DNA of 63,065 nucleotides, the filler included, from Octopus bimaculoides (lineage: Eukaryota), in NCBI RefSeq assembly GCF_001194135.2. It is 6 parts of 6 records of this genome, joined end to end, with 100 filler letters (N's around TTAATTAATTAA, not from the genome) between each part and the next. Parts side by side here need not be neighbours in the genome. Positions count along the whole stretch, not along the records: positions 7,439 to 12,471 come from NC_068981.1; positions 12,572 to 41,121 come from NC_068989.1; positions 41,222 to 60,273 come from NC_068993.1; 3 more parts are not named here. One strand, written 5' to 3'. Below the pieces are notes generated by a model. It had not been told where the DNA came from and made no database searches. It worked only from the letters and a program-made list of their open reading frames with translations. Position numbers and translations under genes: made by a program. Shown piece by piece: positions 9,207-58,061 of the stretch (positions are counted from its first letter, which is position 1; the number at the start of each line of letters is the position of its first letter).

Positions 9207-10056
9207 TTCGTTTCAGAGCGGTCCTTCTCATAGATGACATTATACATTGTTTCTGTCAAATATGAGGCCACGTAAGAAGATCATTCTCAGATAACATTTT
9301 GTAGCAGCTGCTGATCACGTGATTAATATCTTCCACAAATGACAATACAGAAATATATGACATAATCAACAGTTTGTCTCATGTCTTAAATGTTTAAAAC
9401 CTTCCACTGTCTCTCTTGTACGACAGGTATTTCGTAGTTCACTCATGCTATAGGGTTGAAAAGAATAACCTTCGAAATGTATCTTAATGGCCTCGAATCG
9501 AAGGGAATCTGTATGCCATGTGAATGTTAAAACAATTTACAAGTTTACGGCTAGAAAAGCTATAAAGTATATTTCTTTTCGATGTCAATGTCGAGGTTGA
9601 CCTGTCCAGCGTTTCTGGAAACTCATGGAAGAATATCATCAGGGACTAAGTATCTCTTAGTGCTTGTCTAGAGTTAAGACTCTTGACTCATATATGTTAC
9701 TGTTTAATGCATTATTGCTGTTATTGTTTATCAGGAACTCCCCGGGCGATGCATTACGATTGTAAAATTTTGTCTTCCGCGATCTTTCTTTCTTAGTTAG
9801 AGTCATGCATTATCTTTTATTTTTCATTTGTTTCAGGCATTAGACTGCCGCCATGCCGGGGCACTGCCTTGAAGGTTTGAACAAATCGCATCCCAGAATT
9901 TATTTAAAAAAAAAATATGGTACTTATATTTGCTCTTTGCTGAACTGCTAAATTACTGGGATGTCAACAAACCAATATCGGTTGTCAAGAAGCGGTAGGG
10001 GGCAAACACAAAGACACACGTACATACATATGCACATACATATGCACATACAATAT

Positions 10057-10094
<38 letters not shown>

Positions 10095-10392
10095 TTTAGT
10101 ATGAAAATATGGAGTGAACAGGTTTTATTGCGACTCACTACAACTGTTTCAACGCCTCATTATCAGCTGTTACTTTCTGAATATTACGTCATTTATACAC
10201 AATATTGTATTAATATGATTCAACAATAGCTGTGGTGACCCGAGTCAAAGCACTGCTTATACTCTACGGATATATGCAGATTTCCACGTGTATATGCAAT
10301 AACAGAAGTCCTACAATATGATAACATTTGGTAGCTGATACCCAGGGAAAGCACACCATAAGGTTATCACACAGATTATATATATATATATA

Positions 10393-10511
10393 TGTGACAA
10401 TTAGTCGGTTGCCATAATAAAACTCAGAGTTTCTGATGTCGGGGCGGAATTCTGTTCCGGCATCTTGTCAGTTATTAAGGGTTTTATTATGGGAACAGAC
10501 TAATTGTCACA
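10393..10511 (-). mobile_element. Fold-back mini-element carrying a decayed hammerhead motif
   Basis: Inverted ends tgtgacaattagtc/gactaattgtcaca flanked by TA; internal minus-strand hammerhead at 10416-10476; related to 13709-13792. Confidence 0.75.
10416..10476 (-). ncRNA. Minimal type-I hammerhead ribozyme, probably inactive (G8>A)
   Basis: AAUAA-CUGACAA-GAUGCCGG..CCGACAUC-A-GAAA-CUCUGAG-UU-UUAUU; stems I-III pair, core CUGACAA deviates from CUGANGA. Confidence 0.7.
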
Positions 10512-11188
10512 TATAATATAGATAAATTCCTCTATTTAATAATATCGAGGTCTCATTCAGTCTTTTGTTGCCATATTATTATTATTATTAATAATATATA
10601 TATATATATATATANNNNNNNNNNNNNNNNNNNNNNNNNNNNNNNNNNNNNNNNNNNNNNNNNNNNNNNNNNNNNNNNNNNNNNNNNNNNNNNNNNNNNN
10701 NNNNNNNNNNNNNNNNNNNNNNNNNNNNNNNNNNNNNNNNNNNNNNNNNNNNNNNNNNNNNNNNNNNNNNNNNNNNNNNNNNNNNNNNNNNNNNNNNNNN
10801 NNNNNNNNNNNNNNNNNNNNNNNNNNNNNNNNNNNNNNNNNNNNNNNNNNNNNNNNNNNNNNNNNNNNNNNNNNNNNNNNNNNNNNNNNNNNNNNNNNNN
10901 NNNNNNNNNNNNNNNNNNNNNNNNNNNNNNNNNNNNNNNNNNNNNNNNNNNNNNNNNNNNNNNNNNNNNNNNNNNNNNNNNNNNNNNNNNNNNNNNNNNN
11001 NNNNNNNNNNNNNNNNNNNNNNNNNNNNNNNNNNNNNNNNNNNNNNNNNNNNNNNNNNNNNNNNNNNNNNNNNNNNNNNNNNNNNNNNNNNNNNNNNNNN
11101 NNNNNNNNNNNNNNNNNNNNNNNNNNNNNNNNNNNNNNNNNNNNNNNNNNNNNNNNNNNNNNNNNNNNNNNNNNNNNNNNNNNNNNNN

Positions 11189-11533
11189 AGGTCGACTTTG
11201 CCTTTCATCCTTTCGGGGTCGATTAAATAAGTACCAGTTATGCACTGGGGTCGATATAATCAACTTAATCTGTTTGTCTGTCCTTGTTTGTCCCCTCTGT
11301 GTGTATCCCCTTGTGGGCAGTAAAGAAATAAGAAACGTTAGCACACCGGGCGAAATGCTTAGCCGTATTTCGTCTGTCTTTACGTTCTGAGTTCAAATTC
11401 CGCCGAGGTCGACTTTGCCTTTCATCCTTTCGGGGTCGATAAATTAAGTACCAGTTGCATACTAGAGTCGATCTAATCGACTGGCCCCCTCCCCCAAAAT
11501 TTCGGGCCTTGTGCCTAGAGTAGAAAAGAATTT
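11189..11533 (+). mobile_element. Two adjacent copies of tRNA-derived SINE family B
   Basis: cgttagcacaccgggcgaaatgcttagc...gagttcaaattccgccgaggtcgactttgcctttcatcctttcggggtcg; more copies at 12080-12260(-), 19700-19890(-), 22585-22770, 33225-34810, 35985-36480, 43395-43612(-). Confidence 0.85.
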
Positions 11534-11689
11534 GTATACATCCTGTGTTTGCTGTTGAAACATGGATCAAAATGGTGAATCGTGGGGAGGGGGTGGATTT
11601 GCACACCCTGTACTATAACAATACAGTATATTGCTCTTTTTGTTTTTTTTTGTTTAGATATTTGCATAAACTGATGATATCCTCTGTAG

Positions 11690-11850
11690 AGGTGCGTGGC
11701 CTAGCAGTTAGCCTGTTGCACTCACAGCGCGAGATCGTGGTTTCCAATCCTAGACCGGCTGCGCGTTGTGTTCTTGAGTAAAAGACTTATTTTCATTTTG
11801 CTCCAGTCTACTCAGCCTTAAATGGATAATCTTGTGACGGATTGGTGTAC
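11690..11850 (+). mobile_element. tRNA-derived SINE family C
   Basis: tggcctagcagttag...gtttccaatcc head followed by gttgtgttcttgag.aa.acact domain; related copies at 16585-16830, 32718-33005, 35325-35630, 61862-62185. Confidence 0.75.
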
Positions 11851-12261
11851 TAGGATGAAATGGTGACTAAGAAAAATCCCCCGAACGGAAATCTTGCGAG
11901 GCACGTTTTGTATCCAGCGATCGAAAGACGAACACTACAACCCAGACTATGAGCCCGAACTGATTGGTATTGATTGCTCAACCACGTCGAAGGTTAACTG
12001 ATTGATTGATTGGTACCCTCTGTTAACATTTTATGCAAGAGACTAACAAAGGCAAGGACCTATAAAATGAAACGATATTCAATTCTACTTTAGGAACAAG
12101 GCCCGAAATTTTGCGGGGAGGAAGCCAGTCGATTAGATCGACTCCAGTATGCAACTGGGACTTAATTTATCGACCCCAAAAGGATAAAAGCAAAGTCGAC
12201 CTCAGCGGAATTTGAACTCAGAACGTAAAGACAGACGAAATACCACTAAGCATTTCGCCTG

Positions 12262-12392
12262 TTATACATTATTTATATTTGTCATCTTGTTTGTTGTTAA
12301 CACAACGTTTCGGCTGATATTCCCTCCAGCCATCATCAGGTGTCTTGGGGAATTTTAAACCTGAGCTCTCATTCCTGAGTTATTTTTCGATG

Positions 12393-12471
<79 letters not shown>
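12262..12471 (-). mobile_element. Hammerhead-bearing SINE (family H), head lost in gap
   Basis: Homologous to 27124-27372 and 27419-27670, with (ATT)n tract, body and hammerhead. Confidence 0.85.
12299..12344 (-). ncRNA. Minimal type-I hammerhead ribozyme, intact core
   Basis: GACAC-CUGAUGA-U-GGCUG(gagggaauau)CAGCC-GAAA-CG-UU-GUGUU; palindromic AACGUU stem III without a loop; GUU triplet. Confidence 0.85.
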
Positions 12472-12571: not shown

Positions 12572-12799
12572 CAATAGTGCTTTTACCTGGCACGAACCCA
12601 AACTGCATCTCATCTAAATTGATTCGCTCCCTAATTAGTTGGGCTATGACCCTCTCTGTAACTTTCATAACCTGATCTAACAGCTTGATGCCTCTGTAAT
12701 TATTTGTATCTAAAGTGTCACCTTTACCTTTGTAGCAGTTGACTATGATGCTGCTACACCAGTCATTGGGTATGACTCCTTCGTGTATCACCTGGTTCG

Positions 12800-12800
<1 letters not shown>
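12572..12800 (-). mobile_element. RTE-clade LINE fragment (RT N-terminal region)
   Basis: Translates as IPNDWCSSIIVNCYKGKGDTLDTNNYRGIKLL...QFGFVPGKST. Confidence 0.9.
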
Positions 12801-12850
<50 letters not shown>

Positions 12851-12982
12851 TACATACATACACACACACATGATGTGTAAGATGTTATGTAAAGTCACTT
12901 CCAAAATAAAATAAAATATATTGAGAATCTGTAAGTTATACTCTAATGATGACATATCTAACAATATTTGAAATAAACTTAC

Positions 12983-13063: not shown

Positions 13064-13731
13064 CTGAAATAAAACCCTTTTATTATTAGTATGAATTCAA
13101 AGAACACAGACATCATTCTTTCATTTGTTTTATGCCTGATTTTTTTCTTTCTACAATTACTTGTCTAAGACAGACCTACACTTTTGAAATAAATTGGCTT
13201 TTGTAGAAAGTTATCTTATAGTTTTATGATCCTACTGGAGTGCAGTCAGCTTCTTGAGTGAACAGAATTAACTGCATAGCAAATCATCTTTATTGTTTAC
13301 CAAACAGCAGAGTAGGAAAAGAGAAGAGATAACTTGATGGTAACTATAAATTGGTGCGTAATTTCTGCTCTATGGTTTATGACATTGAGAAAAGTACCTT
13401 CTCCCATTGTTTCCCAACAATGTACTTTCAAGTTGAGCCCTCATGTGTGGCACCTTATCTTTTATGTTTTACTTGTTTCAGTCATTAGACTGTGACCATG
13501 CTGGGGCACCACCTTGAAGAATTTTTTAAAGCAAATAAATTGACCCCCCAGCACTTGTTTTTTAAGCCTGGCACTTATTCTATCAATCTCTTTTGCCAAA
13601 CCACTATGTTATGGGGATGTAAATATGCCAACACTGGTTGTCAAGTGGTGGTGGGAAATAAACAGACACAAAGATATATGTGTGTGTGTGCGTGTGTGTG
13701 TAAAAATATGTGACACTTATTCAGTAACCAT

Positions 13732-13792
13732 GATAAAACTCCAAGTTTCGGATGCCAGGGTGTGAGCCCATGCCAACATCTCTTCAGTTATC
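13732..13792 (-). ncRNA. Minimal type-I hammerhead ribozyme (same family as 10416-10476)
   Basis: GAUAA-CUGAAGA-GAUGUUGG..CUGGCAUC-C-GAAA-CUUGGAG-UU-UUAUC; core intact, one unpaired nt at the base of stem II. Confidence 0.75.
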
Positions 13793-17391: not shown

Positions 17392-17519
17392 CTGAAATGA
17401 TAAAATAATATTGATGATAATCATGAGGAGTCCATTAAAAACAGTTAAAATATGACATGTAAATTAATGTATTTATGCAGATCACATTAACCATTAACAA
17501 ATAAATTCTAATTTATATA

Positions 17520-18860
17520 ACATATCTATTCATTCTTAACACATTCTGGCAGATTCAAATGTAACCATCTGGTCACTTTTGTTTTTTATCAATGGAAAAC
17601 ATCACCTCCTTTTAGATGACATGTTCAAAACCATACGGTTTACTGGTGTGAGGGGACTTCGAAACACTAGTGTTTCAACCTTATAGTATGTCTCATCAGT
17701 CAAAGTTATTCTGTCAGACTGATGAATCAGACAAAAGCACGAGCTCTTGTTTATAGGGATCAGCAAGTTATTTGCTGATGCAAGCTGATTTCTGCTAAAC
17801 AGATAATAAATGCATGCAGAACATTGAGGATCAAAACAATGATATACCTATACATTATTAATTCTGGCAGGTTTGAACATGAATATCCTGATCTCTGTTG
17901 TATTTCATCTTCAGAGAATATCTCTCTTTAGACGATGTGTGTTCATAATACATGCAATTTGTTTACTTTTGTTTACTCATTGATCTGCAAGTCACTTTGA
18001 ATGAAGAGACACATCATAAGGTCAAAATAACCGTGTCACAAAGTAAAAAAGTCCCTTATGTCAATGAATTGTGTGTGTTCATGCATAACACACATTGTTT
18101 GAAGGAAGGAGGTATTCTCCAATGACAAAAAACAACAGCAATCAGCATATTTATGTTTGAATTGTATTAAAAAGGAACAGATACATTCTCATTTAGATTC
18201 TTGATGTTCTGCATTCACCTCATGAATTATGATCTGGCAGACATCAGCATGCATCAGCAAATAATTTGTTTGCAGCTTTCTATAAACAAGAGGTACTACT
18301 CCCATTTAGATTCACTGATTTAGGGATAGCTTTGGCAGAAAAGACACAATAAGATTGAAATGCCTCAAACTCAAAATTCCCTTACACCAACGAACCATGT
18401 CTACCTATATTGTCATAAGGGAGGAGATATTCTTTAAAGGCAAAATGTAACAGTGATCAGCAGATTCACAAATGAATCTGCCAGACTGTTTTGAGAGTGA
18501 TAAATAAGTTATCATTTAGATTCTTGCTGTTCTGCATACACCACAAATTATTATCTGTCTGGCAAACATTAGTATACATCAGCAAATAATTTATTTGATG
18601 ATTTCCATAAACAAGAGCCAGTACTCTTGTTAGTTTCATTGATCTAGGGGTAGCTTTGACTGAGAAGACACACAATATGGTTGAAACACTACATTGTCTC
18701 AAAGTCGTCATCGGAAGACCAGAGATGTTCACTAAAGACAGAATACAATAGTGATCAGCACATTCATTTTTGAATCTCTCAAAATGTGTTCAAAATGAAT
18801 AGATACATCATTGTTTAGACTCTCACTGTTTTACGTAGATCCCCTGAATTGTAATTTATA
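17520..18860. repeat. Diverged ~310-bp repeat: about 3 direct units plus inverted partial units
   Basis: Block gttctgca..catcagcaaataa..ataaacaagag recurs near 18205 and 18525, partially at 18750-18860, and as reverse complement at 17520-17960. Confidence 0.7.
17656..17706 (-). ncRNA. Minimal type-I hammerhead ribozyme, intact core
   Basis: ACUUUGA-CUGAUGA-GAC(auacuauaag)GUU-GAAA-CACUAGUG-UU-UCGAAGU; 7-bp stem I, perfect palindrome ACACUAGUGU as stem III. Confidence 0.85.
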
Positions 18861-20038
18861 AATGTATGGAAGGGACATAATTCAGCATTCACCAATTGAA
18901 TTTATTTAATGGTGCTGCCAACCACACAATAGGTGAAATAGATGAAACAACTGAATGATAGCATAATTTACAGTAAACCATTTGGTTGCTGCTTTTAAAG
19001 GGTTCATCTATTCATGGGTTATTGAGTGTTAGTCAACACCGTAGGCTCCAGTACTTGACTTGTACTTTATTTCATCAACCCTGGAAGGTTGAGCTGAAAC
19101 AAACATAGCAAAGCATTTTCCTGATGTTCTAATGATTCTGTTAGATAGAAATTCTTTGATTTAGCAGAGTTCACTTTATATTAGCTTAAAATAGAGTCAA
19201 ATACTTCATTTATTTTCAAAACATTGGATGTGATATTTACAATAGTATCAACAAGTCATATAACCATATCTTTATTCTTTCACTTTGGAATACAGAGGTA
19301 TGGAATTATAGAATTTTTCTCTTTTCCAAAACTTCCTAAAGGAAAGCTAGATTATAAGACAGCTCATCTGACAAACTAATGACATTCGAATCTTTGCCTT
19401 CTTTTGTCACCCCTTTGTTATGGGGAAACAGGTTAAGGGTTGGTGACAGGAAGGGTACCCAACCATAGAAAAATCTCTCAACAAATTCTGACTGATTCAT
19501 GCAAACATGGAAAAGTGGACATTAAAACTATGATGATGATGATGAAATGAAAATATTATCTTTATAATATATATCAAAATATAATTTATAAATTGATATT
19601 TAAAAAGTATATTTATATATATCATATATATTAAAAATGTTATTTTTATAATATATATCTTTATATTATTTTTATTAACATGTCTTTATAATATATTGGT
19701 TTCAAATTTTGGTACAAGGCCAGAAAGTTCAGGGGAGGGGGTAAGTCAATTACATCGACCCCAGTGTTCAACTGGTACTTATTTTATTGACCCCGAAAGG
19801 ATGAAAGCAAAGTCGACCTCGGTGGAATTTGAACTCAGAAAGTAAGGACAGATGAAATACCACTGAGCATTTTGCCTGGTGTGCTAATGATTCTACCAAT
19901 ATATTATTTATATTAAAATGTTATCTTTATAATAGATATTAAAATGTAAATGAAATGTTACCAAAATTTCACAATTAAAATTTAAATATTAGAATAAGAA
20001 ATATAAAAAAAAGCAAAAAACAAGAAAATGTTATATAC

Positions 20039-20899: not shown

Positions 20900-21545
20900 C
20901 GAGTGTCAGCTGAAAAGTTCATAGGCTGACCAAAATTCTCTCATAAAATGTGACCAAATAAGGTTTATTTTTCAACATAGTCTCCCTTGCAACCAACACA
21001 CTTCTTCCATCAGTGTTGCAGTGCTTGGATCCCATTGGTGAAGATGCTTCCATCATGTTGATCGAAAAAACCCATCAGAAGTAGATATGACATCATCATG
21101 ACTATGATACTGGTTATCATTTTGAGGAACAGATGATAGTAAGATGGAGGCCAAATCAGGAGAATCTGGAGGTTGATCAACTAGTTCAAAGCCATAGTCA
21201 TGCACAGAAGCCATTGAAACCAAAGAATTGCGTGCTGGTCCATTGTCCTGATGAAACAAGACCCCTTTTGTCAGTTTTCCTGGGCATTTGATCTTCATAG
21301 CCTTTCATAACTGCCTCAGCAAGTTGACATAGTAGTACTCTCTACTGATGGTGAAGCCTTTTTGAAGATAGTCAATAAACACAGTGCCATTTGCATCCCA
21401 AAAAACTGAGGCCATTGCCTTCCCTGCAGATGAAACAACCTTGGCCTTCTTTGGAGCTTTGGTGATGAGGGGTATTTCCACTGCATGGATTGCCTCTTTG
21501 TCTCTTGCTCAAAGTGATAAACCCAATACTCATGGTTACCCCAGC
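20900..21545 (-). mobile_element. Mariner family 1 fragment (one TIR plus 3' transposase)
   Basis: TA+cgagtgtcagctgaaaagttcataggctgac; FHQDNGPA, QPPDSPDLAS, EQETKRQSMQW; frameshifted. Confidence 0.9.
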
Positions 21546-22819
21546 TAAAAAGAGAGAAAAGAGATGGTAGTGATGGGGCATCAGGGCATACACCCAAAGT
21601 ATAAGAATGTGAAAATGAGAGAGGATACAGACAGAGGATTGAAAGTGGTGGGTGAGTAGATAAGTTTGTGAGAGTATGAAAGGAATGTGGTTAGAGATGC
21701 AGTTCCAAGATCTAGTTCTTACTGTCGGGAACACAATCAAGTAAACTATCCTAAAATAAAATTTGTAGTCATTACTCTGTGTAACAGAAGTATTTTTTTT
21801 TTTGCCTTTGGTCAGTAAAGTGTTATTTCCTAATTGTTTCTATCAAGAAATCAAAGGAAATGACCATTATTCCCTTCAAACTTTGTTTTTGTGACCTGGA
21901 CATCAATGTTTTAAAACTGACCCATTTTCCATTACATTTCAGACAGACTCAGGACTGAGTTGCTGAAGTAGAATTTTCTAGTACTTTTTAGAAGTTTCTA
22001 AAAGTTTCAAGAATGGCAGTATAAATACAAGGCTCGTAAGCTCAACAGTTCAGTTTACTTCTAGCTGTCCAAGTGGAGACAAGTTTTAGGAAAGCAAAGC
22101 TTGAAGGAAATATCAGCCATTTTTTATGCTTTCTAGGGATAAGCAAATAGGAAATAACAGTCACTACCCAAGGACAAAAATTGTGTTACACAATGTTGGA
22201 TCACAATGAATGTGCTTGCAACTCAATGGAGATCCTTTAACCATTAAAAACTAAACTAATATGACAGGCTGTTTAAAAGGGAGAATATGATAAATTCATG
22301 GATATGGTGAGTAGCCCTTTCATTAGTTTATTTTCTTTTACTATCTTACATCAATTCTTTTTTAAGTGAGTATGATATATTTTATTAGAATAGATTGTTT
22401 TCACATCTGGATGATTACCCGACTACAAAAATACTCAACAGTGAAGTCGGAATTCAACTTGTTGTTATTTGTGCAAAATATGGATATGACAATATCTATT
22501 TATTTACTGCTTTCACTGTATTGAAGTTTTAGTAATTATTCTTATACAATTTAATAATTATACTCACATCTAAGGTAGTGAGGTGGTATAATTGTTAGCA
22601 TGCTGGAAAAAATGCTTATTGGCATTTTGTCTGTCTTTACGTTCTGAGTTCAAACTCTATGGAGTTCAACTCTGCCTTTCATCTTTCCAGGGTCAATAAA
22701 ATAAGTATCATTTCATCAATTGATTTATTCCCTCAAACGAAATTGTTGGCCTTGTACCAAAATTTGAAACCAATACTTACACTCATCAAGAAAACACCTT
22801 TACACTCCACTCCCTACAT

Positions 22820-23200: not shown

Positions 23201-23842
23201 ATACTTTCTGTGACTGACATAATTTATTTACATAATGATCCAAAATTGAGACTGGTGGCCTGACAATTTTTTTTCTTTTTCATTACTTGTTGGATTTTGA
23301 AAGTGCCCATGACTTTTGAAATTCTTCCTCAACTTGTGAGACAAATTGTATTAATGTTTAACTTAAACTGTTACAAGTTGACCCCTGTAAGGAACAAAGA
23401 GGAGATTTCAGAAGGATGATGTTCTAGAGAAGGAAGGAAGGAATGGGAACAGTGATTAGTACAGGGTCTGGGGTGTTGGACACAACATGGGTGATGAGAG
23501 GTGACAAGACAAGTGGATCAGGGATGCCCGAGTGGAGGTAGTACAAAAACTGTCAACATCAAAGAACAGAGGTCATTACAGTATTGACAGAAATGGCAAT
23601 AAGGGGAAAAAAGACAGAGATGGTGGAGATGAGATGCCAGAGCAAACTAATGTTAAATAGTGAGTTCATATATTTATTTTTTCATGCAAAGTAAAGCAAA
23701 AGCAAAACTATGTCTTGTTGACTTGTGTGGTAAAATGACAGTGCTGGACTGATGTAAATGAGATAATCCAGCATCTTAATCTCAAAGTCAGGATCATTCC
23801 TGTAATGCCATCAAGTAATTACATCAACAACATAATCAAACC

Positions 23843-25427
23843 CAGTACAGCAATGAATTCCGGGTAGAGGTAGGGGTCCACCAAGGTTCCGTCCTCAGCC
23901 CCCTATTATTTACCATAGTCCTCCAGGCAATCACAGAGGAGTTCAAGACAGGTTGCCCCTGGGAGCTCCTCTATGCTGATGACCTTGCCCTAATTGCGGA
24001 GTCACTATCAGAACTAGAGGAGAAGTTTCAGGTGTGGAAGCAAGGTCTAGAATTGAAGGGCCTTAGAGTCAACCTAGCTAAAACCAAAATCCTAATAAGT
24101 AGGAAGGTAGATAAAACACAAACCCCTTCAGGTAGATGGCCCTGCTCAGTATGTAGAAAAGGAGTAGGTAGTAACTCTATAAGATGTACCCGGTGCAAGC
24201 TATGGACACATAAGNNNNNNNNNNNNNNNNNNNNNNNNNNNNNNNNNNNNNNNNNNNNNNNNNNNNNNNNNNNNNNNNNNNNNNNNNNNNNNNNNNNNNN
24301 NNNNNNNNNNNNNNNNNNNNNNNNNNNNNNNNNNNNNNNNNNNNNNNNNNNNNNNNNNNNNNNNNNNNNNNNNNNNNNNNNNNNNNNNNNNNNNNNNNNN
24401 NNNNNNNNNNNNNNNNNNNNNNNNNNNNNNNNNNNNNNNNNNNNNNNNNNNNNNNNNNNNNNNNNNNNNNNNNNNNNNNNNNNNNNNNNNNNNNNNNNNN
24501 NNNNNNNNNNNNNNNNNNNNNNNNNNNNNNNNNNNNNNNNNNNNNNNNNNNNNNNNNNNNNNNNNNNNNNNNNNNNNNNNNNNNNNNNNNNNNNNNNNNN
24601 NNNNNNNNNNNNNNNNNNNNNNNNNNNNNNNNNNNNNNNNNNNNNNNNNNNNNNNNNNNNNNNNNNNNNNNNNNNNNNNNNNNNNNNNNNNNNNNNNNNN
24701 NNNNNNNNNNNNNNNNNNNNNNNNNNNNNNNNNNNNNNNNNNNNNNNNNNNNNNNNNNNNNNNNNNNNNNNNNNNNNNNNNNNNNNNNNNNNNNNNNNNN
24801 NNNNNNNNNNNNNNNNNNNNNNNNNNNNNNNNNNNNNNNNNNNNNNNNNNNNNNNNNNNNNNNNNNNNNNNNNNNNNNNNNNNNNNNNNNNNNNNNNNNN
24901 NNNNNNNNNNNNNNNNNNNNNNNNNNNNNNNNNNNNNNNNNNNNNNNNNNNNNNNNNNNNNNNNNNNNNNNNNNNNNNNNNNNNNNNNNNNNNNNNNNNN
25001 NNNNNNNNNNNNNNNNNNNNNNNNNNNNNNNNNNNNNNNNNNNNNNNNNNNNNNNNNNNNNNNNNNNNNNNNNNNNNNNNNNNNNNNNNNNNNNNNNNNN
25101 NNNNNNNNNNNNNNNNNNNNNNNNNNNNNNNNNNNNNNNNNNNNNNNNNNNNNNNNNNNNNNNNNNNNNNNNNNNNNNNNNNNNNNNNNNNNNNNNNNNN
25201 CATAAAAGACACCATTTCGAGCGTGGCCGTTTTCGTGCGGGTGACACGTAAAAGCACCCACTACACTCTCTGAGTGGTTGGCGTTAGGAAGGGCATCCAG
25301 CTGTAGAAACTCTGCCAAATCAGACTGGAGCCTGGTGTTGCCATCCGGTTTCACCAGTCCTCAGTCAAATCGTCCAACCCATGCTAGCATGGAAAGCGGA
25401 CGTTAAACGATGATGATGATGATGATG
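23843..25427 (+). mobile_element. 5'-truncated RTE-clade LINE spanning a gap
   Basis: GVHQGSVLSPLLF...LLYADDLALIA...WPCSVCRKGVGSNSIRCTRCKLWTHK before the gap (24215-25200); 3' UTR with (GAT)n tail after it in the same orientation. Confidence 0.85.
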
Positions 25428-26070
25428 AAAGATAATTAGTAGTCGTGTTCTAATATTAGAAATTAATTAACGTTCAAGTTGAGATCATTCAAAGAATATT
25501 GACACAAGGAAAGAAGGAAAAAAAGAGCAAGGGTTTTTCATATAGTGTGTTGTGTATGCTAAAATTAAGTTTTAAATATACAAATATATATCTTTGATCT
25601 TTATCTTTTAGCTTTTACTTGTTTCAGCCATTGGACTATGGTCACTCAACAACTGGTGCTGGTTTGTTTATGTCCCTGTAACTTAGTAGCATTTCAGCAA
25701 AAGAGACCGATAGAATAAGTACCAGGCTTAAAAAAATAAAATAAATACTGGGGTTGATTTGTTCAACTAAACCGTTTGGGGCAGTGTTCTAGCATGGCCA
25801 CAGTCCAACAATTAAAACAAAGGATAAAAGATGAAAAATATATAACAACCTTTTACTTCTTTCAATCATTTGACTGTGGCCATGATGGGGCACTACCTTG
25901 AATGATTTTAAAGCCTAGTACTTATTCTGTCCATCTCTTTTGCTGAACCACTAAGTTACAGGAACATAAACAAACAAACACTGATTATCAAGCAGTAGTG
26001 GGGAACAAACACAGACCACAAATACATACACACGCATAGATATATACGTATGTATGTATATATATATATT

Positions 26071-26140: not shown

Positions 26141-27123
26141 ATGGGCTTCTTTCAGTTTTCCCTCTACCAGATCCACTCACAAGGCTTTGGTTAGCCTAAG
26201 GCTACAGTAGAAGACACTTGCCCAAGGTTCTATGCAGCTGGACTGAAACCTGGAACCATGTGGTTGGGAAGCAAGCTTCTTACCACACAACCATGCCTGC
26301 AGTTACAAATGTTGTGAGAACTATACAACTGTATACAGTTAAAGAAATGGATAACGCTCAAGATTTTGTTTTTGTTGTATCCTATTAATTTGGCCTGTAA
26401 GGGGTCCAAAACCAGTGAGATTGATACAGTTAATATTGTACTCAAATCAGTGGAAGCTGACAGGATATGTGCAGGGAGGGAATTCAAGAGAGCTGATGTT
26501 CTGGGAGGAAAAGGAAAGGACTAAGCATTGTGATAAGAGTGGGGCCAGGAGGTGGTGGTTAAACATATGGTGATAAAAGGAGAATCAAGTGGGTTAAGGA
26601 TATATGGATGGTACTGATCTCATGCTGAGCAGAAGTAGCTAGAGATCAGTCAACACTAAGGGGTAATAATAGAAAAGGCAGAGATGAGCTGGATTGTTTG
26701 TGGGCCAGAGTGGATGTGTTGGTGTATGACTTTACAACAATCAGTCAGGTCAGGTCATGTCTCAGGACGTGGTCTTGGATATGCTCTCTCTCTCTCCCTC
26801 TGTGTGTGTGTGCGCCTGTGCTTGCATGTGCAATGTCCCAGATAGAGGAGTTGTATTGCAATGAGTTTCCTGGAGAGTATTTTCTGGCCTTGAATAGAAG
26901 AGCCCCATTTTTAAAGATGATGTCTTTGCTATGTTAGATCTTTAGTGTTTATACTGGCTATATCAGGCCCAAATATTCTACATGTTTTATGTTCAAACCA
27001 AATTCAGCCTCTCACACCTAACATAAAATGTCATACTAAAAATATACTATGACATCATTGAAATCTAGAAACAGCAAGATAGTTCATAATTCAAACCAAT
27101 TTGAATAAATAAGCATTATGCTT

Positions 27124-27372
27124 CATTATTTACAATATTTACATTCAACGGATATTTGTCCTCATCTTGTTTGTTGTTAACACAATGTTTTGGCTGATAT
27201 ACCCTCCAGCCTTCTTCAGGGTTCTTGGGGAAATTTCGAACCTGGGTTCTCATTCCTAAGGTATTTTTCGATGTTATTATTATTATTATTATTATTATTG
27301 TTCAGGTCAATGCTTGGAATCGAACTCAAAATCTTGGGGTTAGTAGCCTGTGCTCTTAACCACTACACCATA
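27124..27372 (-). mobile_element. Hammerhead-bearing tRNA SINE (family H); hammerhead decayed
   Basis: Head ggtgtagtggttaagagc...gagttcgattcc, (AAT)n, body; core CUGAAGA but GAAA>AAAA and stem I damaged (27179-27224). Confidence 0.85.
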
Positions 27373-27418
27373 TACCTTTGGTTTTTTTTTCCCTTCTTTC
27401 CTTGTGTCAATATTCTTT

Positions 27419-27670
27419 GGCGTAGTGGTTAAGAGTGCCCAAAATTCTGAGTTCGATTCCAAGCAGTGACCTGAATACTAATAATAATAATAATAACAAC
27501 ATCAAAAAATACCTTAGGAATGAGAACTCAGGTTTGAAATTTCCCCAAGACACCTGATGAAGGCTGGAGGGTATATCAGCTGAAATGTTGTGTTAACAAC
27601 AAGCAAGATGAGGACAAATATCTGTCGAATGTAAATAATGTACATAATTCCTCATCTCTTAAATATAGAA
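27419..27670 (+). mobile_element. Hammerhead-bearing tRNA SINE (family H)
   Basis: ggcgtagtggttaagag..gagttcgattccaagc head, (AAT)n, hammerhead at 27549-27594, AT-rich 3' tail. Confidence 0.85.
27549..27594 (+). ncRNA. Minimal type-I hammerhead ribozyme
   Basis: GACAC-CUGAUGA-A-GGCUG..CAGCU-GAAA-UG-UU-GUGUU; two CpG-decay changes give G-U wobbles, core intact. Confidence 0.8.
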
Positions 27671-29714
27671 AAGCATTATGCTTGATAGAATAATCTGAAT
27701 GTTAAAAATGTGTTGTTGTCACAATATATCCTTACTGATAATGAAATCAGACGTTTGAAGGGATGATAAGGGTTCTAGTTGCATGATGTTCATGTTTGGA
27801 GTGGTGTGTATGATTATGTTGTCTTGCAACATGTGAAGTGATTTTTTTTTACCAATTAAGCAATCAAAATTAGCATAACCCCTTAGTAGGCTATTTTCAA
27901 AATTCATGTTGATGGAGTCTCAGTGCAGGTTAGTTGTGAGGTGTTTAGGTTACATGAGGATGGTGCTTGAGTGTGGCAGGTTAGGAACAGCTGAAGGGTG
28001 GCATTATCTGTGTAAGTGTTATTGGAAGCGACTACAAGTAGAAGGTTGATGTAGAAGAAGAAGAAAGTGGGGGGTGGGATGGGGTGGACATAAAAACTAA
28101 GCCCTGGAATGCACCAAAAGAGATGTGGGTCAGAGAAAGCTCCATTAGCACAATAAATGATGATACAATTTGACTCACTGATCTAAGAAATGAAAAACAG
28201 TCTATGGACTAGAAGTTTGACCATGAGAATTTGCATTCCAGACACAGTCAAAATCTTTACTGATATTGAGGGTAACAATAATATTTTCGCTATATTTCTC
28301 AAGGACGAGAACCCACAGAGGTGTTGGGCTCATGAACCACTATTTAGGCTCTCAGTTACTGGTTCAAATCATACTAAGGTCAACTTTGTCTTTCGTCTTT
28401 CATTCCTACAAGGTCAATAACAGAGTAGCTTATACAATCAACTGCAGCCTTCACTTCCGACAATTAGTCTTGTAGCTAATTAACCACTATTTAATTGATT
28501 TGATGAAATATAAGACAATTGCTAATTAACGATGTTCAGTGATGAGTTATTACATCTATTGATCAAATGGAGAAATGGAACCATGGCTTTTATGCCTTAC
28601 CTAATAGTATGAGTGATCTTGAAGAAATGAAATACCTACTAACTTCCAAGCTTACTTTTACTGAAAATTACTTCTACTTTAACATGTTTGTCTCAAGATG
28701 AATGTACATAAAACATTGTGCAGGGTTAGGTTGGTAGTAACCAAAGAGCATCTATAACACAACCAGTAATATGCAATTAAAAGATGGTCATTAACATTTG
28801 TCTGGTGGCAATTATTGATATTTATCTCTACCTGGAACAAACCATCTCCCTTATAACTGCACTCCAACTCTGTCAAAGAGTCTTGTCTTGTAAATTATTT
28901 GTTGACCTCAATAGAGTTGGGGGCTATGAAAAAAGCAACCAGTACACTCTGTAAAGCTGTAGAAACTTTGCCAAAGTAGACACTGAAGCTCAATGCAATG
29001 CTCTGGCTTGTTGGATCCTGTCAAACTGTCCAACCTATGCTAGCATGGAATATGGACATTAAATTATGATGATGACAATTTCATTAAGCTGCTCAATCAA
29101 ATAGCACCAAGAGTGCAATAGGTATTTCAAATATAGTCTATGGTCTTGGATTATGTCATTAGGAGGGAGTTACAAGATTTAATATATAGACTGTTGAAAT
29201 ATATTATTTTAATCAACAATTTTTTGACATAAAAGTACCCTACACATTAAAAGAAATGTTACTTTTGTGGTATTTAGACAGATGTTGTATTCAAGGTTTC
29301 TAATTACTTGATGCTCTATGGTAAATAATGCATAACAATAATCCTAATTGATCCCTACTATTGGGGCAAAACCATGACTTTTGGCAGTGGGAGAGAGAGA
29401 GAGAAAAAGAGATGTAGTCAATTTAATAATTAGTGCTTGTTTTATCAAACTCAGAAGGATAAATGACAGTCATCTTTGGTAGAATGTATGACCAAAACAT
29501 CTGGAGAGATAAGTTACAAAGTGCAGACCAGAAGTTTCGAGACATTTTTAGGAGAAGCAATTATAACTTTCCTAGATTACTATGATTTTAGTATATCATT
29601 ACTATACATCTAATAAGCTGACCTGCCAACCTCTGTTAGTCAAGATTGAAGAAGATAGCTGTAACAATACTTTGAACACACACCCAACTGAACACTGCTT
29701 CTCACAGTTGACTT

Positions 29715-33398: not shown

Positions 33399-33429
<31 letters not shown>

Positions 33430-40476: not shown

Positions 40477-40509
<33 letters not shown>

Positions 40510-40539
40510 CTATTTATATATCTTCTTGTCTTGACATCA

Positions 40540-41121
40540 TGTCATCATCATCATCATCATTATTTAATGCCTGTTGTCCATACTGTCATGGGTTGGACGG
40601 TTTGACAGGGCTGGCATGCTGGAAGGCTGCACAAGACTCCAGTCTGATTTGGTATGGTTTTCTATGGCCGGATGCCCTCCTGAACACCAACCACTCTGAG
40701 AGTGTAATGGGTGCTTTTACATGGCACTGGCGCAAGTTCCATTTGCATGACACTGGGGTGCGTTTGCATGACACTGGTATCTGCCATGACTGATTTTGCT
40801 TGGCTTGCTGGGTCTTCTCAAGCATGACATAATGCCAAAGGTCTTGGTTATTGCCTCTGTGAGGCCCAACACTCAAAAGGAACTGGGCCAGTTTGCCTTC
40901 GTGAGGCCCAATGCTTGAATAGAACTCAGGCACCTTACCTCCGCGAGAACCAACACTTGAAAGGAACTTAGCCACTTTACCTCTGTCAGGCCCAACACTC
41001 AAAAGGAACTCAGCCACTTTACTTCTGTCAGGCCCAACACTCAAAAGGAACTCAGCCACTTTGCCTCTGTCAGGCCCAACACTCAAAAGGAACTCAGCCA
41101 CTTTGCCTCTGTCAGGCCCAG
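40540..41121 (-). mobile_element. RTE-related 3' fragment with a 42-bp tandem array (40860-41121)
   Basis: Unit aggcccaacactcaaaaggaactcagccactttgcctctgtc x ~6; adjacent DLWHYVMLEKTQQAK and (GAT)n tail. Confidence 0.8.
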
Positions 41122-42392
41122 NNNNNNNNNNNNNNNNNNNNNNNNNNNNNNNNNNNNNNNNNNNNTTAATTAATTAANNNNNNNNNNNNNNNNNNNNNNN
41201 NNNNNNNNNNNNNNNNNNNNNCGTTGTTTATTTTTCTATCTACTATTTTATTCCTTTATACACCGTGAACTTTCCTACATACTAACCTTGTCTCTCGTGA
41301 CGGAAACCCCAGTGTATGGAAACGCTAACCTATCATTTGAGATATTCCAGAAACAGCTGTAAGGCATCCAGTAATTAATTACTAATTGATTGATTAAGTG
41401 ATTACTTCAAATTCAATATACCAACATCAATCCACCATTGGGTGTATGTGTGTGTATTTCTGAATTTGTTACTTTAACTCCTCCGAGACTATTCAACCGA
41501 TCTTGATGAAACCTGACACATGGCNNNNNNNNNNNNNNNNGGGGGGGGGGGGACTAACGCCCATGCGGTTACTTTCGCACTTGGAATTTCAAAAAATCGA
41601 TAATTTTTTATCGGCATCGATTTTCCAAAAATCAGTAGGTCATTTTTATGCAAATTCTCATATGAATGTTATTTTCTGTTCCATTACTTTTAAAGTTTTC
41701 AACCGATTTTCTTGTAATTTCATATACAGATGGAATATACGCTAAGGATGGGCTGAGACAAATAATTTTTTACCTAGGCCACACAAGTAAAGCGTAAGAT
41801 GATTTTTTATTAACTGATTAACGAAATTTGGCCTAAATTGTTGTGGGGTTAAAATGTTCAATTATTTCCATATTCTCAGGTTGCTGTAACACATATTTTC
41901 TTAAGACCTGCACTTAAAATTATCGATTCTAAACGTTGTGTGCTAAAACATGTAACATGTATTTTCTTAACACCTACACTTAAAATTCTCGGTTCTAATC
42001 CTTGCAATCGATATTTGATTCTCACGATCAGTGGAACAATACCCATGAAACACAGTCGTCAAATTAAGTGCCTTTTCTCTAAGTAATTTTTTGTTTACTT
42101 TTCAAACTTTTGTGTTCTTTTTTTTTCATAGCACTCCTTTACACTGATCATATATTTGCCACTTTCCTCTCATCTGACCAAATGATTGCTATTTTCTGAT
42201 TCCACATGTATTTATTTGTATTAGTTTCATGAATGAATTTTCTTACACTTTCTACTCTCTGTCCTATGTCTTGATTTCAATTTTTTCATCTGTGAGAAAT
42301 TAGGCATTGTAATAGGTACTGGGAATATCCCCACTCTCGGATATTAGCGGGTACCTCAGCTAGTGTATGTACGTGTGTGTGTGAGTGTGTGT

Positions 42393-42460: not shown

Positions 42461-45400
42461 ATATATATTGACCGGTAGACAGATAGCAGAGAACAATATA
42501 AAACAAATCTATTCATCTTTTCTTACAAAATGCAAATTATGTCTGCTATCGGAAGTGTTCTTCAGAGTATATGTGTGTATGTACTTAGGAATGTACGTGT
42601 ATATATGAATGCGCATACATACATATTTTGTAAATGTGTTTGTGTGTACATATACACGTATGTATGTATTATATATATGTATGTACATATGTATGTATTA
42701 GTGTACAATTAAATTTTCATTGTTCATTTGTTGCATATAACTTTTACTTCGATTAGTAGCTTTAGAGAAATAATGTGCAGTATGAGAATATTACAATGAA
42801 CTGATTTAGACTTTATAGAGAAATAAATAAAATGATTATATGACAACGGTATAAAATTGTGTAATAACAGAATGATCTGCAGTATATAATCAAATTGAGC
42901 AATTTTAGAATATAATTTTCATATCTGAATAAATTTTAGAATTAACATTAGATTCTAGAACATCAAATTTAAGTACTTAAATGTCGAATAAATGTTTTAT
43001 TTATGAATAATGTAAATATAAACGGGTACAAAATAGCCTCTATGTAGTCGTCTATGTGCTATAAATACTAGCGAAATCTTTGTCAAATCGTACGCTTCTA
43101 TTGTTTTTTGTTTTGTTTTTTTGTTTTTTGTATATATTAAAGAAACGACATAGTCTTGGATGTTCATTATGACAACATAACGATGATGGTAACACCTTTC
43201 ATCATAGCTCTGTTCATTCATGGACGTCGTAAGTATAAACAGCGAATAAAGACATCGTTACGTGTTTGCTGGTGTTGCTTTGGTACCACATAGTCTCGAG
43301 TTGTTTCATTTCACTACATACCTCTTTGGGCCACTAAACGTTTTAACAAACTAAATCTTTTTTGACTAAACAGAGGTAGTGAAATATTCTTTTCTACTCT
43401 AGTTACAAGGTTCAAAAATTTCGGGGAGGGGGTCAGTCGATTAGATCGACTCCAGTACGCAACTGGAACTTAATTTAACGACCCAGAAATGAAAAAAGGC
43501 AAAGTCGACCTCGGAGGAAGTTGAACTCACAACCTAAAGACATACGAAATACCGCTAAGTATTCCGCCTGGGGGGGGGGGGGTGCTAACTTATCTGCCAG
43601 CTTGCTGCCTTAACAAGAATGACATATTAAGCAGCTTGGTGTTTTCGAGGAGCAAGTTACGTGCAAAACAAAGATGTCCTACAATACTAAATCTGAAATC
43701 ACGCTCTATCTTAAAAACTTGCATCTCCTCAGAGAATCATAGTCTAGTTTATTAAAGATGAAAGAAGGGACATGTTGGATAACAGAGTCCTAGGTACTAG
43801 ATACGTTTTATCAGAGGAAAATGGTAAATATACTGTTCATGACTGAATGCTGATTGCTTTCAGCTTTGTGCAGAATGTTAATTTTACAACCAATACACTG
43901 AGGTTGAGTCAAATGACTGCATTTCTCAATGCTTAAAGCCTTTGTGCGTTCGCTAGAAATAACAGCTAAATCTTACTCTTTTGTGGAGAAATAGAAAGAA
44001 TTTATTATATAATATAGTCTTTGGTAAACAAACAGATGATATATATCAAAACTGGGACATATTTAAAGAGGGTTCTCCTGGATCAGGACTGACTGGGTGC
44101 TAAACAGTAATAACAACAATTTATAAGATTGTACGGAATAAAAAAGAAATCCTTATTTATTTAACCCGGTTCTACTTTCGTTCCAATCAGTCGCAAGATC
44201 ACCGGCTGCATTATTTTCAATAATCGATTAATTTTATGCTTTCTTCACAAGCTACCAGAAATTTTGTGAGATATTTCTGCGCAATTTTATGGTTGACAGT
44301 TCTCTATGTAAGTTGAATGTGACTTCTTCATTTGGGAAAATAGCCGGAATAATTCTAGAATCGAAGACACATCGGGTGGAAAATATTATGTTAGCAAAGC
44401 TATAATTAATGTTTATATAATCGATTAAAACTCGTTCTTCTTATCGACATTACCATCATCATCATTGTTGTCGTTGTCGGTCTCATCGGGTGGTTTAGCA
44501 TTTGCACGCTTGTTTTACTACTTAAATGCTTTCTTACACAGAAACATGATTTGCTACAAATTTTAAGGGGAGAATATATTACAGTAGAATTAAATCGACC
44601 TTAAACCAGTGATTGGTAATTATTTTATCAATATTGTCTATTAGATGAATGTAATGCCAAAGCTAATGGGATTTCAATACAGAAGGAAAAGAATTATCTG
44701 AAGTCATTTTGTAGATCTATAGAATATGATCAACTGAGTCAATTATTACCGGTTTTGGTCTACCTTGTCAATATTCACAGAGCTATTCAATGTGGCCTCA
44801 TTATTTAGTCCCTACAGGCTATCATTTATTTTGCTTACAAGACCGTCCTCCATACGCTTTTATGTTTCTCGTTAAGTGATATTTAAAAATTCCGATTAAA
44901 ATTTGAGTAGATTTTCTGATATGTAATGTCTAATTTCTCTATATCTCTTTCATTCATCTATATGTATTCGCTCGCTCATAAATAAATTTAGGGCATAACT
45001 ACAAATGTGTGTCCACCATCGATTTATTTCATTACAGCTTTCTGAAAAATGGATATTTGTTAACGAAATTTTCTACAAATATGTTCCAAATTTTCAACAA
45101 ATACGTTCAGAATTTCTTGTGGAAATCTATTTTGAAGTGTTAGAGAGATTCGAACAATTCGCACACCACGACTTTGTTTCTTCGTAAATTTTCTCATACG
45201 TTTTTGATGATGAAGATTATACTTATGTTGAGAAAAATCACTTCTCAAACCCACGTGTTCCCAGCTATTTCTAGCATGTTAGGTGACCACGGAAAGGATA
45301 GAGATTAAGACTACGAGCAAATAATGAAATGAATGTACATGCTGTGTAGTAAGGAGCTTGTTTCCCAACCACATAGTTCCGGGTTCAGTCCCACTGTGTA

Positions 45401-55587: not shown

Positions 55588-55597
55588 TGTATGTATG

Positions 55598-55645
<48 letters not shown>

Positions 55646-55846: not shown

Positions 55847-56130
55847 GACCAACTCTGAGATAGGCGTAGAACAGACCTCGGAGTGAAAATGAGAGTCAAC
55901 GAGTTACTGAAAAAATCGTGAACTGCGACGAAAGAACTTTGACTAACAAACAAACAACCGATTGATTGTTTAACGAACACGTTAAACAAACGGTCGATTT
56001 GTTAGTCGGTTAGATATTTGATCAATTGACTAACACTAAAGAAGTGGAATTGAACCATTTCATTGTTATTTAGAAATTCTCTTATTTGTTATTACAAATT
56101 AGTTTTTAATTTAATTTAAACCTTACTAAT

Positions 56131-56243
56131 TTACTCAGTCAAAATTTGCCATGTGGTTATAATTTGTTGATCTTCATAGCACACACTATCTTAAACATTC
56201 TCTTCAAAGTCACTGCTTTCTGAACTATAACGTGCACACACAC

Positions 56244-56281
<38 letters not shown>

Positions 56282-57453
56282 CCTTTCTCTCGTTCTTTCT
56301 TTCTCTTTCTCTCTCTCACTTTCACTCTCGCTCTCTTCTCCTTTCTCTCTTTATAACTATATTACAGTATTTATACTTAACACTATGTTCCATCTTGCTC
56401 TGTCGAAAANNNNNNNNNNNNNNNNNNNNNNNNNNNNNNNNNNNNNNNNNNNNNNNNNNNNNNNNNNNNNNNNNNNNNNNNNNNNNNNNNNNNNNNNNNN
56501 NNNNNNNNNNNNNNNNNNNNNNNNNNNNNNNNNNNNNNNNNNNNNNNNNNNNNNNNNNNNNNNNNNNNNNNNNNNNNNNNNNNNNNNNNNNNNNNNNNNN
56601 NNNNNNNNNNNNNNNNNNNNNNNNNNNNNNNNNNNNNNNNNNNNNNNNNNNNNNNNNNNNNNNNNNNNNNNNNNNNNNNNNNNNNNNNNNNNNNNNNNNN
56701 NNNNNNNNNNNNNNNNNNNNNNNNNNNNNNNNNNNNNNNNNNNNNNNNNNNNNNNNNNNNNNNNNNNNNNNNNNNNNNNNNNNNNNNNNNNNNNNNNNNN
56801 NNNNNNNNNNNNNNNNNNNNNNNNNNNNNNNNNNNNNNNNNNNNNNNNNNNNNNNNNNNNNNNNNNNNNNNNNNNNNNNNNNNNNNNNNNNNNNNNNNNN
56901 NNNNNNNNNNNNNNNNNNNNNNNNNNNNNNNNNNNNNNNNNNNNNNNNNNNNNNNNNNNNNNNNNNNNNNNNNNNNNNNNNNNNNNNNNNNNNNNNNNNN
57001 NNNNNNNNNNNNNNNNNNNNNNNNNNNNNNNNNNNNNNNNNNNNNNNNNNNNNNNNNNNNNNNNNNNNNNNNNNNNNNNNNNNNNNNNNNNNNNNNNNNN
57101 NNNNNNNNNNNNNNNNNNNNNNNNNNNNNNNNNNNNNNNNNNNNNNNNNNNNNNNNNNNNNNNNNNNNNNNNNNNNNNNNNNNNNNNNNNNNNNNNNNNN
57201 NNNNNNNNNNNNNNNNNNNNNNNNNNNNNNNNNNNNNNNNNNNNNNNNNNNNNNNNNNNNNNNNNNNNNNNNNNNNNNNNNNNNNNNNNNNNNNNNNNNN
57301 NNNNNNNNNNNNNNNNNNNNNNNNNNNNNNNNNNNNNNNNTTACTCAGTCAAAATTTGCCATGTGGTTATAATTTGTTGATCTTCATAGCACACACTATC
57401 TTAAACATTCTCTTCAAAGTCACTGCTTTCTGAACTATAACGTGCACACACAC

Positions 57454-57491
<38 letters not shown>

Positions 57492-57619
57492 CCTTTCTCT
57501 CGTTCTTTCTTTCTCTTTCTCTCTCTCACTTTCACTCTCGCTCTCTTCTCCTTTCTCTCTTTATAACTATATTACAGTATTTATACTTAACACTATGTTC
57601 CATCTTGCTCTGTCGAAAA
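56131..57619. other. Exact ~280-bp direct duplication flanking an N gap (probable contig-overlap artefact)
   Basis: 56131-56409 is identical to 57341-57619. Confidence 0.8.
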
Positions 57620-58016
57620 AAAAACAACTGAAAATACATAAAAAGACAGCTTTCCAATACCAGGTGTCATTCATCAAAACAGTATCAGCATTTTAGCATT
57701 GACTTACACTAAAGTACATCACAGCAACAAAACAGCCTGTATAACATGACAATAACTTATGAATATTGATATATTTATATGACATTATAATATAACATGT
57801 ATATTTTATTGCATATTTATATGATATTTATATATTTATATAAGCTTATTATACACTGTATATGTTATCTATATATTATTCATAAATTTATACAAGCTTA
57901 TTATGTACGGCAGATGTTATTACATGTTAATATATCTATGGAATCTTACATACACACACGCGTGCACACGCATATATTTATATAATATTGCTATACTTAT
58001 ATGATAATGTCCTCTG

Positions 58017-58061
58017 CATTACACTGACGAAATCTAAGATGAAACACGGATGTCAGTAATG
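58017..58061 (+). ncRNA. Candidate type-I hammerhead ribozyme with GUC site
   Basis: CAUUACA-CUGACGA-A-AUC(uaa)GAU-GAAA-CA(cgga)UG-UC-AGUAAUG; only the first stem-I pair is mismatched (A.A). Confidence 0.65.

Follow-up and report, generated by a model that had tools for sequence, protein, structure and literature searches.

Minimal hammerhead ribozymes in Octopus bimaculoides DNA and a short interspersed element probably mobilized by Penelope-like elements

A stretch of 63,065 nucleotides of Octopus bimaculoides DNA (NCBI RefSeq assembly GCF_001194135.2; six parts of six records joined end to end, hereafter “the window”) carries a scatter of small hammerhead ribozyme motifs, and the locus raises the question of which elements these motifs belong to and what machinery copies them. 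The original prediction, made from the sequence alone, was that several lineages of Penelope-like elements (PLEs) mobilize short non-autonomous passengers here. A many-family “ecosystem” of dispersed hammerheads is, as a whole, already known biology (PMC4209133; here and below, statements about published work concern the available portions of the sources cited). The general finding is thus mostly known, and the part that merits attention is a single family, which we call family A. We propose, with a probability of roughly two in three, that the hammerheads mark 3′ modules of several PLE lineages and that family A is a high-copy short interspersed element (SINE) of ~ 250 nt with a tRNA-type head, transcribed by RNA polymerase III (Pol III) and copied in trans by a PLE.

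The window is microsatellite-rich animal DNA and includes 5,232 N. We searched it with a descriptor for type-I hammerheads, which required the core CUGANGA/GAAA/UH and at least 4 bp in stem I and 3 bp in stem II, and recovered five motifs with a complete core and pairing stems, at 27554(+), 58024(+), 17699(−), 13787(−) and 12339(−). The same descriptor found a mean of 0.02 and a maximum of 2 such motifs in 1000 local dinucleotide shuffles and none in the reversed window, so the motifs are real. When one core mismatch was permitted, there were nine matches (shuffle mean 0.89, maximum 4; 150 shuffles); two of the four extra ones, at 10471(−) and 18660(+), are relatives of intact motifs, while those at 7894(+) and 52514(+) lack kin and could be chance hits. 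Further decayed relatives, at 27219(−), 18001(+) and 18336(+), came to light by self-BLAST and by pattern searches. Nine motifs had been claimed and are largely present; five of them, not the six claimed, are intact by the descriptor, because the motif at 9604 lacks U16.1 and stem II. Four of the stem-I labels that accompanied the claim correspond to families recognized here (GACAC to A, RAUAA to B, ACUUUGA to C and CAUUACA to D), and for the fifth, UGACC, the search gave no matching motif. The description of most stems III as loop-less or palindromic suits family A, family C (17699) and the 9604 motif, but not B and D as they stand. For the whole window, Rfam lists 144 matches at E ≤ 5, none of them a hammerhead. 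In a narrow Rfam scan, the 17699 motif scored 21.4 bits against Hammerhead_1, under the cut-off of 34, and none of the window’s hammerhead motifs reached the Rfam cut-offs. A Pfam scan of 222 of the 522 stop-to-stop pieces of at least 40 aa (137 of the 171 longest and all 85 shorter ones close to motifs) found no PLE reverse transcriptase (RT) or GIY-YIG domain, in agreement with the earlier remark that the window holds no such open reading frame (ORF).

Family A has three copies in the window (Table 1). Two of them are placed head to head within one exact 13-bp duplication, a length reached by 3 of 1500 random pairs of window positions. In each of these arms, read in its own sense, an A box and a B box are followed, past a short spacer, by (AAT)n, then by ~ 50 nt, then by the hammerhead with 3′ sequence behind it, and the body begins at the identical letter after (AAT)n in all three window copies. 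The left arm has the full tRNA-type head and a damaged hammerhead (27179–27224). The right arm carries a 12-nt deletion between its boxes and, in its hammerhead, two C > T changes (27581 in stem II, 27586 in stem III); its predicted cleavage falls after 27589. At the 3′ end the right arm extends 21–22 nt beyond the left, a one-sided tail, and the family’s 3′ ends lie 52–81 nt beyond the predicted cut. The gap between the boxes of the left arm is 33 nt, within the 30–35 nt near the 5′ end that characterizes tRNA-derived SINEs, and the boxes match the SINE promoter consensus of PMC8969392; the box pattern occurs twice in the window versus a mean of 0.07 in 300 shuffles. Family A is non-coding and dispersed with unlike flanks at high copy, and its length lies within the SINE size class of 80–500 nt. 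For compensatory changes in the stems the window offers only three copies; the residue pairs in 55 protein matches (described below) mix paired, wobble and broken states, and CpG decay confounds the comparison. The low-copy filler between the two heads probably arose by templated insertion where the two arms meet and stands outside the family; we considered it as a family A leader and ruled this out by its read depth of ~ 100 versus millions in the arms.

We compared a 611-base stretch around this pair (window 27090–27700), at 80% likeness, with two DNA sequencing runs from two organisms (X1 and X14) and two RNA runs (X21 and X22). Contigs matching the stretch number 35,058 in X1 and 39,985 in X14; the summed depth is no measure of copy number. 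Most of the damage in the window copies is undone by the majority letters of the family: in the left arm, those at 27191, 27215, 27221 and 27222 restore core and stem I, and others mend 27581 and, in the A box, 27367. At 27328–27329 the majority letters remove the sole sense-strand TTTT, and at 27586 about half of the reads carry C. Among the matches listed (1,430 further rows exist), the long 3′ end at 27670 appears as loose ends with unlike flanks in 558 (X1) and 602 (X14) contigs, with the common letters going on for ~ 5 nt past it; shorter ends at 27642, 27648 and 27124 appear in 76, 80 and 126 contigs of X1 and in 81, 87 and 112 of X14. The 3′ end classes are 22–34 nt apart, and the 5′ end lies near 27373–27378. 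We also considered that copies end at the cut site, which most of the ends contradict; the joints at 27180 alone are 3–4 nt away from it.

Fifteen of 367 joints between family A pieces are listed, and eight of these link 27373 to opposite-arm positions between 27529 and 27628, so that a complete head adjoins a truncated copy in inverted orientation. Others of those listed set two truncated copies back to back, the same form as the fold-back of family B. The fold-backs of the window had been taken for mini-element families of their own. That view is not supported. The same junction type occurs at many break points in the read data, and fold-backs are likely insertion products, head-to-head pairs of truncated copies, rather than families resembling miniature inverted-repeat transposable elements (MITEs).

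PLE insertions are described as leaving inverted, truncated partners and one-sided tails of 30–40 bp (PMC8557442, PMC11167929, PMC8969392), and short non-autonomous Penelope elements have been reported (PMC6685494, PMC8557442). In the window, inverted and often 5′-truncated copies stand head to head in families A, B and C; short one-sided tails are present in the family A pair and, at 36 nt, in family C; and a duplication in AT-rich DNA surrounds the whole array in both (13 bp in A, 14 bp with one mismatch in C). Families A and C both bear these insertion marks, from which we infer trans copying by a PLE protein, and with two such arrays the proposed link to PLEs is stronger than a reading of the sequence alone had made it. 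A mechanistic model is offered by an Anolis PLE: its protein introduces nicks into both strands of AT-rich DNA, and reverse transcription begins at two positions, one at either end of a tail of 30–40 nt (PMC11167929). By analogy, family A would supply its own RNA from its Pol III boxes, a PLE RT-endonuclease would bind the hammerhead-plus-tail module of this RNA, and the protein would nick AT-rich DNA on both strands and begin reverse transcription at two sites 22–34 nt apart, giving two facing copies, one with a tail and one without. As stem III is loop-less, the family A hammerhead would have to dimerize, or be assisted by protein, in order to fold, and it may serve mainly as a recognition module. 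In Anolis, the hammerhead cleaves only with the protein, is dispensable for insertion in vitro, and shows no RNA-seq ends at its cut site, the same blank as we see in family A (PMC11167929).

Family C would be inserted by the same route. Its array comprises head-to-tail units of ~ 300–315 bp (unit marks at 18109, 18424 and 18722), each with a hammerhead motif or a remnant of one (the decayed copies at 18001 and 18336), and its right end is longer than its left by the length of the tail. The length and match of the duplication around it are reached by 5 of 1500 random pairs. Tandem non-coding units of ~ 300 bp, each with a type-I hammerhead, are the form of non-LTR (LTR, long terminal repeat) retrozymes, which are described as non-autonomous PLE derivatives (PMC7229834; bioRxiv 10.64898/2026.07.22.740005). 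The preprint recognizes active copies by two consecutive intact motifs, whereas the sole intact motif here lies in the inverted unit. Tandem Repeats Finder missed the decayed array. Family C is a tandem non-LTR retrozyme that bears PLE insertion marks, and the inverted arm, the target duplication and the tail tie it directly to PLE insertion; all three set it apart from the published retrozymes, as does the lack of two consecutive intact motifs in this copy. Of the proposed non-autonomous passengers, a SINE-like one is supported for family A and a retrozyme-like one for family C.

A reading frame through the family A hammerhead matches proteins named Octopus sinensis and O. bimaculoides, and the family therefore exists in Octopus. 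A search of longer proteins with this frame gave two matches, both host proteins with an exonized copy. Two annotated Octopus proteins (P0003 and P0004), by look a TNF-receptor-like membrane protein and a dystrobrevin isoform, start with a translated piece of family A, through exonization or annotation error. Among representative proteins the spurious frame gave 55 matches, of which 13 hold, by motif, the upstream sequence of the window copies, 34 a sister 3′ module and 16 a different head. The sister family (P0005–P0057) carries the hammerhead-plus-tail module behind another head, and no window copy of it was seen; 11 of the 55 matches repeat its module head to tail every 42–43 residues, equivalent to tandem repeats of 126–129 nt, which begin at stem I. 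One match, P0045, follows both family A arms in turn and thus reads as an independent head-to-head pair. The ten proteins looked up among the 55 are unnamed singletons, and none of the 42 scanned contains an RT or GIY-YIG domain. Finding only exonized or spurious frames, and neither domain, we rejected the hammerhead frame as the start of a PLE ORF, for now and on weak evidence. To judge from the sequences, the presence of one 3′ module behind differing 5′ parts may resemble a signal for recognition by a partner. A 24-nt family A motif had no match in metagenome and viral contigs, and a run-level search with family A listed no run holding it as RNA.

Several observations weigh against our reading of family A. 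The sides of the joints are short (19–59 letters) and rated weak at 80% likeness. No listed contig piece bridges head to tail, the (AAT)n letters being skipped, and as no listed piece spans (AAT)n the family-wide link between the two is carried by the two arms of one insertion and by the short joints. Summed depth over the head amounts to roughly one quarter of the depth over hammerhead and tail. Neither Rfam nor ARAGORN at default settings calls the head a tRNA in these diverged copies; Rfam on 27100–27700 reports neither a hammerhead nor a tRNA, and ARAGORN at relaxed thresholds makes 24 to 162 calls in the window, which is noise. The boxes fit, yet both programs are silent, and we therefore speak of a tRNA-type promoter as observed and of a tRNA origin as presumed. 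An autonomous PLE sharing the family A end was not found in searches of protein and metagenome/viral DNA collections. In the two RNA runs, 73–74% of the reads on family A continue into unlike sequence, and there is neither a pile of starts or ends nor a drop in depth at the predicted cut. Finally, the double-hammerhead fold of the 12339 copy has −22.5 kcal/mol versus −29.3 for its best co-fold.

The low head depth and the unbridged (AAT)n would both follow if every motif were the 5′-truncated end of an autonomous PLE and the head a separate short SINE ending in (AAT)n, a microsatellite in which a PLE end landed to form a chimera that moved once or rarely. PLEs prefer AT-rich and microsatellite targets (PMC8557442, PMC11167929), and such an origin fits families B, D and E well. 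We consider it unlikely as the general explanation, given the shared first letter of the body in all three window copies of family A, the presence of head plus body on both arms of one target-duplicated insertion, and the joining of the head’s 5′ end to an inverted body at eight break points among the joints listed. Family A might instead be a rolling-circle retrozyme or an element like the schistosome Sm-alpha, itself SINE-like, tRNA-related and hammerhead-bearing (PMC2770079, PMC6765202, PMC8490949), in which cleavage and circularization define the RNA and any reverse transcriptase inserts it. The tandem form of family C and the start of the sister family’s head-to-tail repeats at stem I speak for this, but family A ends well past its predicted cut, shows no head-to-tail joint among the 15 listed of 367, and has arms that face each other and so give one sense hammerhead per transcript, all of which makes the idea quite improbable.

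An ordinary SINE mobilized by a long interspersed element (LINE), or a MITE, that captured a hammerhead would account for the Pol III boxes, the target duplication, the SINE size and the inverted arms of the pair, and LINE RT fragments do occur in the window. In family A, however, the simple repeat lies inside the element, which finishes 3′ with the hammerhead-plus-tail module rather than with poly(A) or a LINE-type repeat tail, while the arms are unequal and variably truncated, with the promoter inside and many break points, unlike the fixed and equal terminal inverted repeats of a MITE; we regard this origin as very improbable. If repeat DNA rich in AT had thrown up the motifs by chance, this would explain why none reaches an Rfam cut-off and why two one-mismatch matches lack kin. 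The shuffle test, at five versus a mean of 0.02, rules out such an origin for the five intact motifs, the family majority letters restore the core, and we give chance almost no credence.

The two RNA runs are standard cDNA libraries, of which ~ 6% each was covered, and they gave 9,813 (X21) and 8,014 (X22) reads on family A, both directions equally. The reads that continue into unlike sequence are as expected for copies within longer host transcripts, and the blank at the cut is evidence neither for nor against cleavage or Pol III transcripts. Cleavage may be rare, because the double fold is the weaker one and facing arms give one sense motif per transcript. Places with A > G / T > C differences number 31/23 (X21) and 35/25 (X22) in RNA versus 7/14 (X1) and 7/13 (X14) in DNA; as individuals differ, this excess is only a lead for A-to-I editing. 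Because PLE insertion lays copies facing each other, the SINE would make its own double-stranded RNA in any host transcript. Whether such self-made double-stranded RNA feeds A-to-I editing, from tens of thousands of Pol III-driven, PLE-partnered SINE copies in Octopus genomes, is in our estimate an even bet. A separate feature of the RNA is that 3 nt of stem III are absent at 27586 in ~ 11% of reads (X21, X22) versus < 1% of the DNA depth, which probably stems from a dead copy carried in a single strongly expressed host transcript or in a small number of them.

How these elements relate to known systems can be set out briefly. Published PLE hammerheads are dispersed minimal motifs at PLE ends, in several families per genome, as single motifs or opposite-strand pairs 100–700 bp apart (PMC4209133), and to find many of them is ordinary for an invertebrate genome with PLEs. 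Those of the window share with them the core, an extra nucleotide before stem II, the G-C first pair of stem II and, in A, C (17699) and E, a palindromic or loop-less stem III, and occur likewise mostly as single dispersed copies with some opposite-strand pairs in several families; they differ in that family A has a Pol III head, of which the available text of PMC4209133 describes none, and in that no autonomous PLE was seen here. The Anolis Poseidon PLE PAc likewise has a hammerhead, a short stretch, two alternative 3′ ends and AT-rich targets, but it is autonomous, with an ORF that begins inside the hammerhead (PMC11167929), whereas family A encodes neither RT nor nuclease. The sister family, with its 126–129-nt tandem, is like the non-LTR retrozymes, as family C is; family A is dispersed, head to head and equipped with Pol III boxes, and in this is unlike them. 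In the schistosome elements Sm-alpha and Sj-alpha, as in family A, a type-I hammerhead comes after a tRNA-related Pol III promoter, and copies number in the tens of thousands. The hammerhead of Sm-alpha is canonical, its copies are described as tandem and released by cleavage, and the sources at hand assign it no PLE partner, in contrast to the minimal hammerhead and the PLE-type inversion and tail of family A. Passengers with Pol III heads are known for LINEs and, as TRIMp3 (Helenus, Ajax), for LTR elements (PMC10886601). Family A is, like SINEs and TRIMp3, a short passenger with a promoter derived from a small RNA, but its likely partner belongs to a third class of retrotransposon, and the available text of PMC10886601 never mentions Penelope.

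The literature covered, which excludes Repbase, Dfam and most subscription journals, describes no Pol III-headed element with PLE insertion marks. The octopus SINEs published in 1994 go by the names OK, OR1 and OR2. OR2 is called a CORE SINE (PMC4758252). PLEs make up 6.83% of the octopus genome and 893 of 900 recently active octopus SINE families are unclassified, and the available supplement of that study contains neither “hammerhead” nor “ribozyme” (PMC13282606). SINEs are defined as passengers of LINEs, and a SINE with a PLE terminus, if true, would widen the definition and add a third kind of small-RNA-headed passenger beside the LINE–SINE and LTR–TRIMp3 pairs. The minimal RNA signal for a PLE protein acting in trans would then be ~ 130 nt, hammerhead plus tail, and so short a natural substrate would make the role of PLE hammerheads testable; some of the SINEs and MITEs that octopus repeat libraries leave unclassified would be misfiled.

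Three of the five families, B, D and E, need be only 5′-truncated PLE ends and probably are PLE-type ends of this kind. Nothing in them separates a non-autonomous element from the 5′-truncated end of a full PLE, a form on record already (PMC4209133); none has a clear target duplication at its window loci. In the fold-back of family B, the plus-strand piece begins near the predicted cut site. The family E motif keeps CUGAUGA and GAAA and has a GUCC/GGAC stem I, with C in place of U16.1 and an unpaired stem II. Facing it, at 9456–9481(+), is one weak match to a core variant with U3-A8, which stands outside the counts and the shuffle comparison.

Table 1. Window coordinates of the hammerhead-bearing elements and the duplications around them
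Feature	Position	Strand	Description
Family A, right arm	27418..27670	+	A box 27418, B box 27451, (AAT)n, body, minimal hammerhead, long-tail 3′ end
Family A, hammerhead of right arm	27549..27594	+	Every core letter present; loop-less stem III
Family A, left arm	27124..27378	−	A box 27370, B box 27325, (AAT)n, hammerhead, short 3′ end
Target-site duplication of family A pair, left copy	27111..27123	+	13 bp
Target-site duplication of family A pair, right copy	27671..27683	+	13 bp
Filler between family A heads	27379..27417	−	Resembles window 25490–25547, 85% over 59 nt, 1.9 kb upstream
Family A, third copy	12266..12471	−	(AAT)n, body, intact hammerhead 12299–12344; 5′ part in assembly gap
Family B, terminal fragment	13706..13792	−	Intact hammerhead 13732–13792; adjoins (TG)n tract of another repeat
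Family B, fold-back	10390..10514		Minus piece with one-mismatch hammerhead 10415–10477, head to head with plus piece; (TA)n flanks
Family C, array	17518..18846		One inverted unit, then a 5′-truncated unit, then head-to-tail units
Family C, intact hammerhead	17656..17706	−	7-bp stem I, palindromic stem III; in inverted unit
Family C, hammerhead with one core change	18653..18705	+	Found by descriptor
Target duplication of family C array	left 17504..17517, right 18847–18860	+	14 bp, 1 mismatch
Family D, hammerhead	58017..58061	+	Single motif without kin in window; core complete, stem II of 3 bp
Family E, hammerhead-like motif	9604..9646	−	Damaged; no kin in window

The window holds other repeats as well. 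Pfam reports RVT_1 fragments at 12573–12884(−) and 23819–24214(+), which we take, from their motifs, to be LINE-type rather than PLE-type, and remnants of Tc1/mariner transposases at 21308–21508(−), 29783–30834(−) and 38549–38737(+). Another A-box/B-box pattern, at 35330–35383(+), is not family A and is likely the head of a different SINE. A short repeat family without a hammerhead has many copies (11173–11531, 12080–12261, 19695–19878, 22548–22744, 33287–34812, 35961–36491 and 43383–43571). A further repeat, which terminates in (GAT)n and probably represents the 3′ end of a LINE, lies at 25204–25426, 60759–60995, 62841–63063 and 40228–40727; it contains CTGAGGA...GAAA and was rejected as a hammerhead on failing the stem test. 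An exact duplicate of 279 nt flanks a gap (56131–56409 and 57341–57619) and is likely an assembly artifact, and a 42-nt minisatellite at 40851–41144 lies in an open frame with a weak match to DUF7726.

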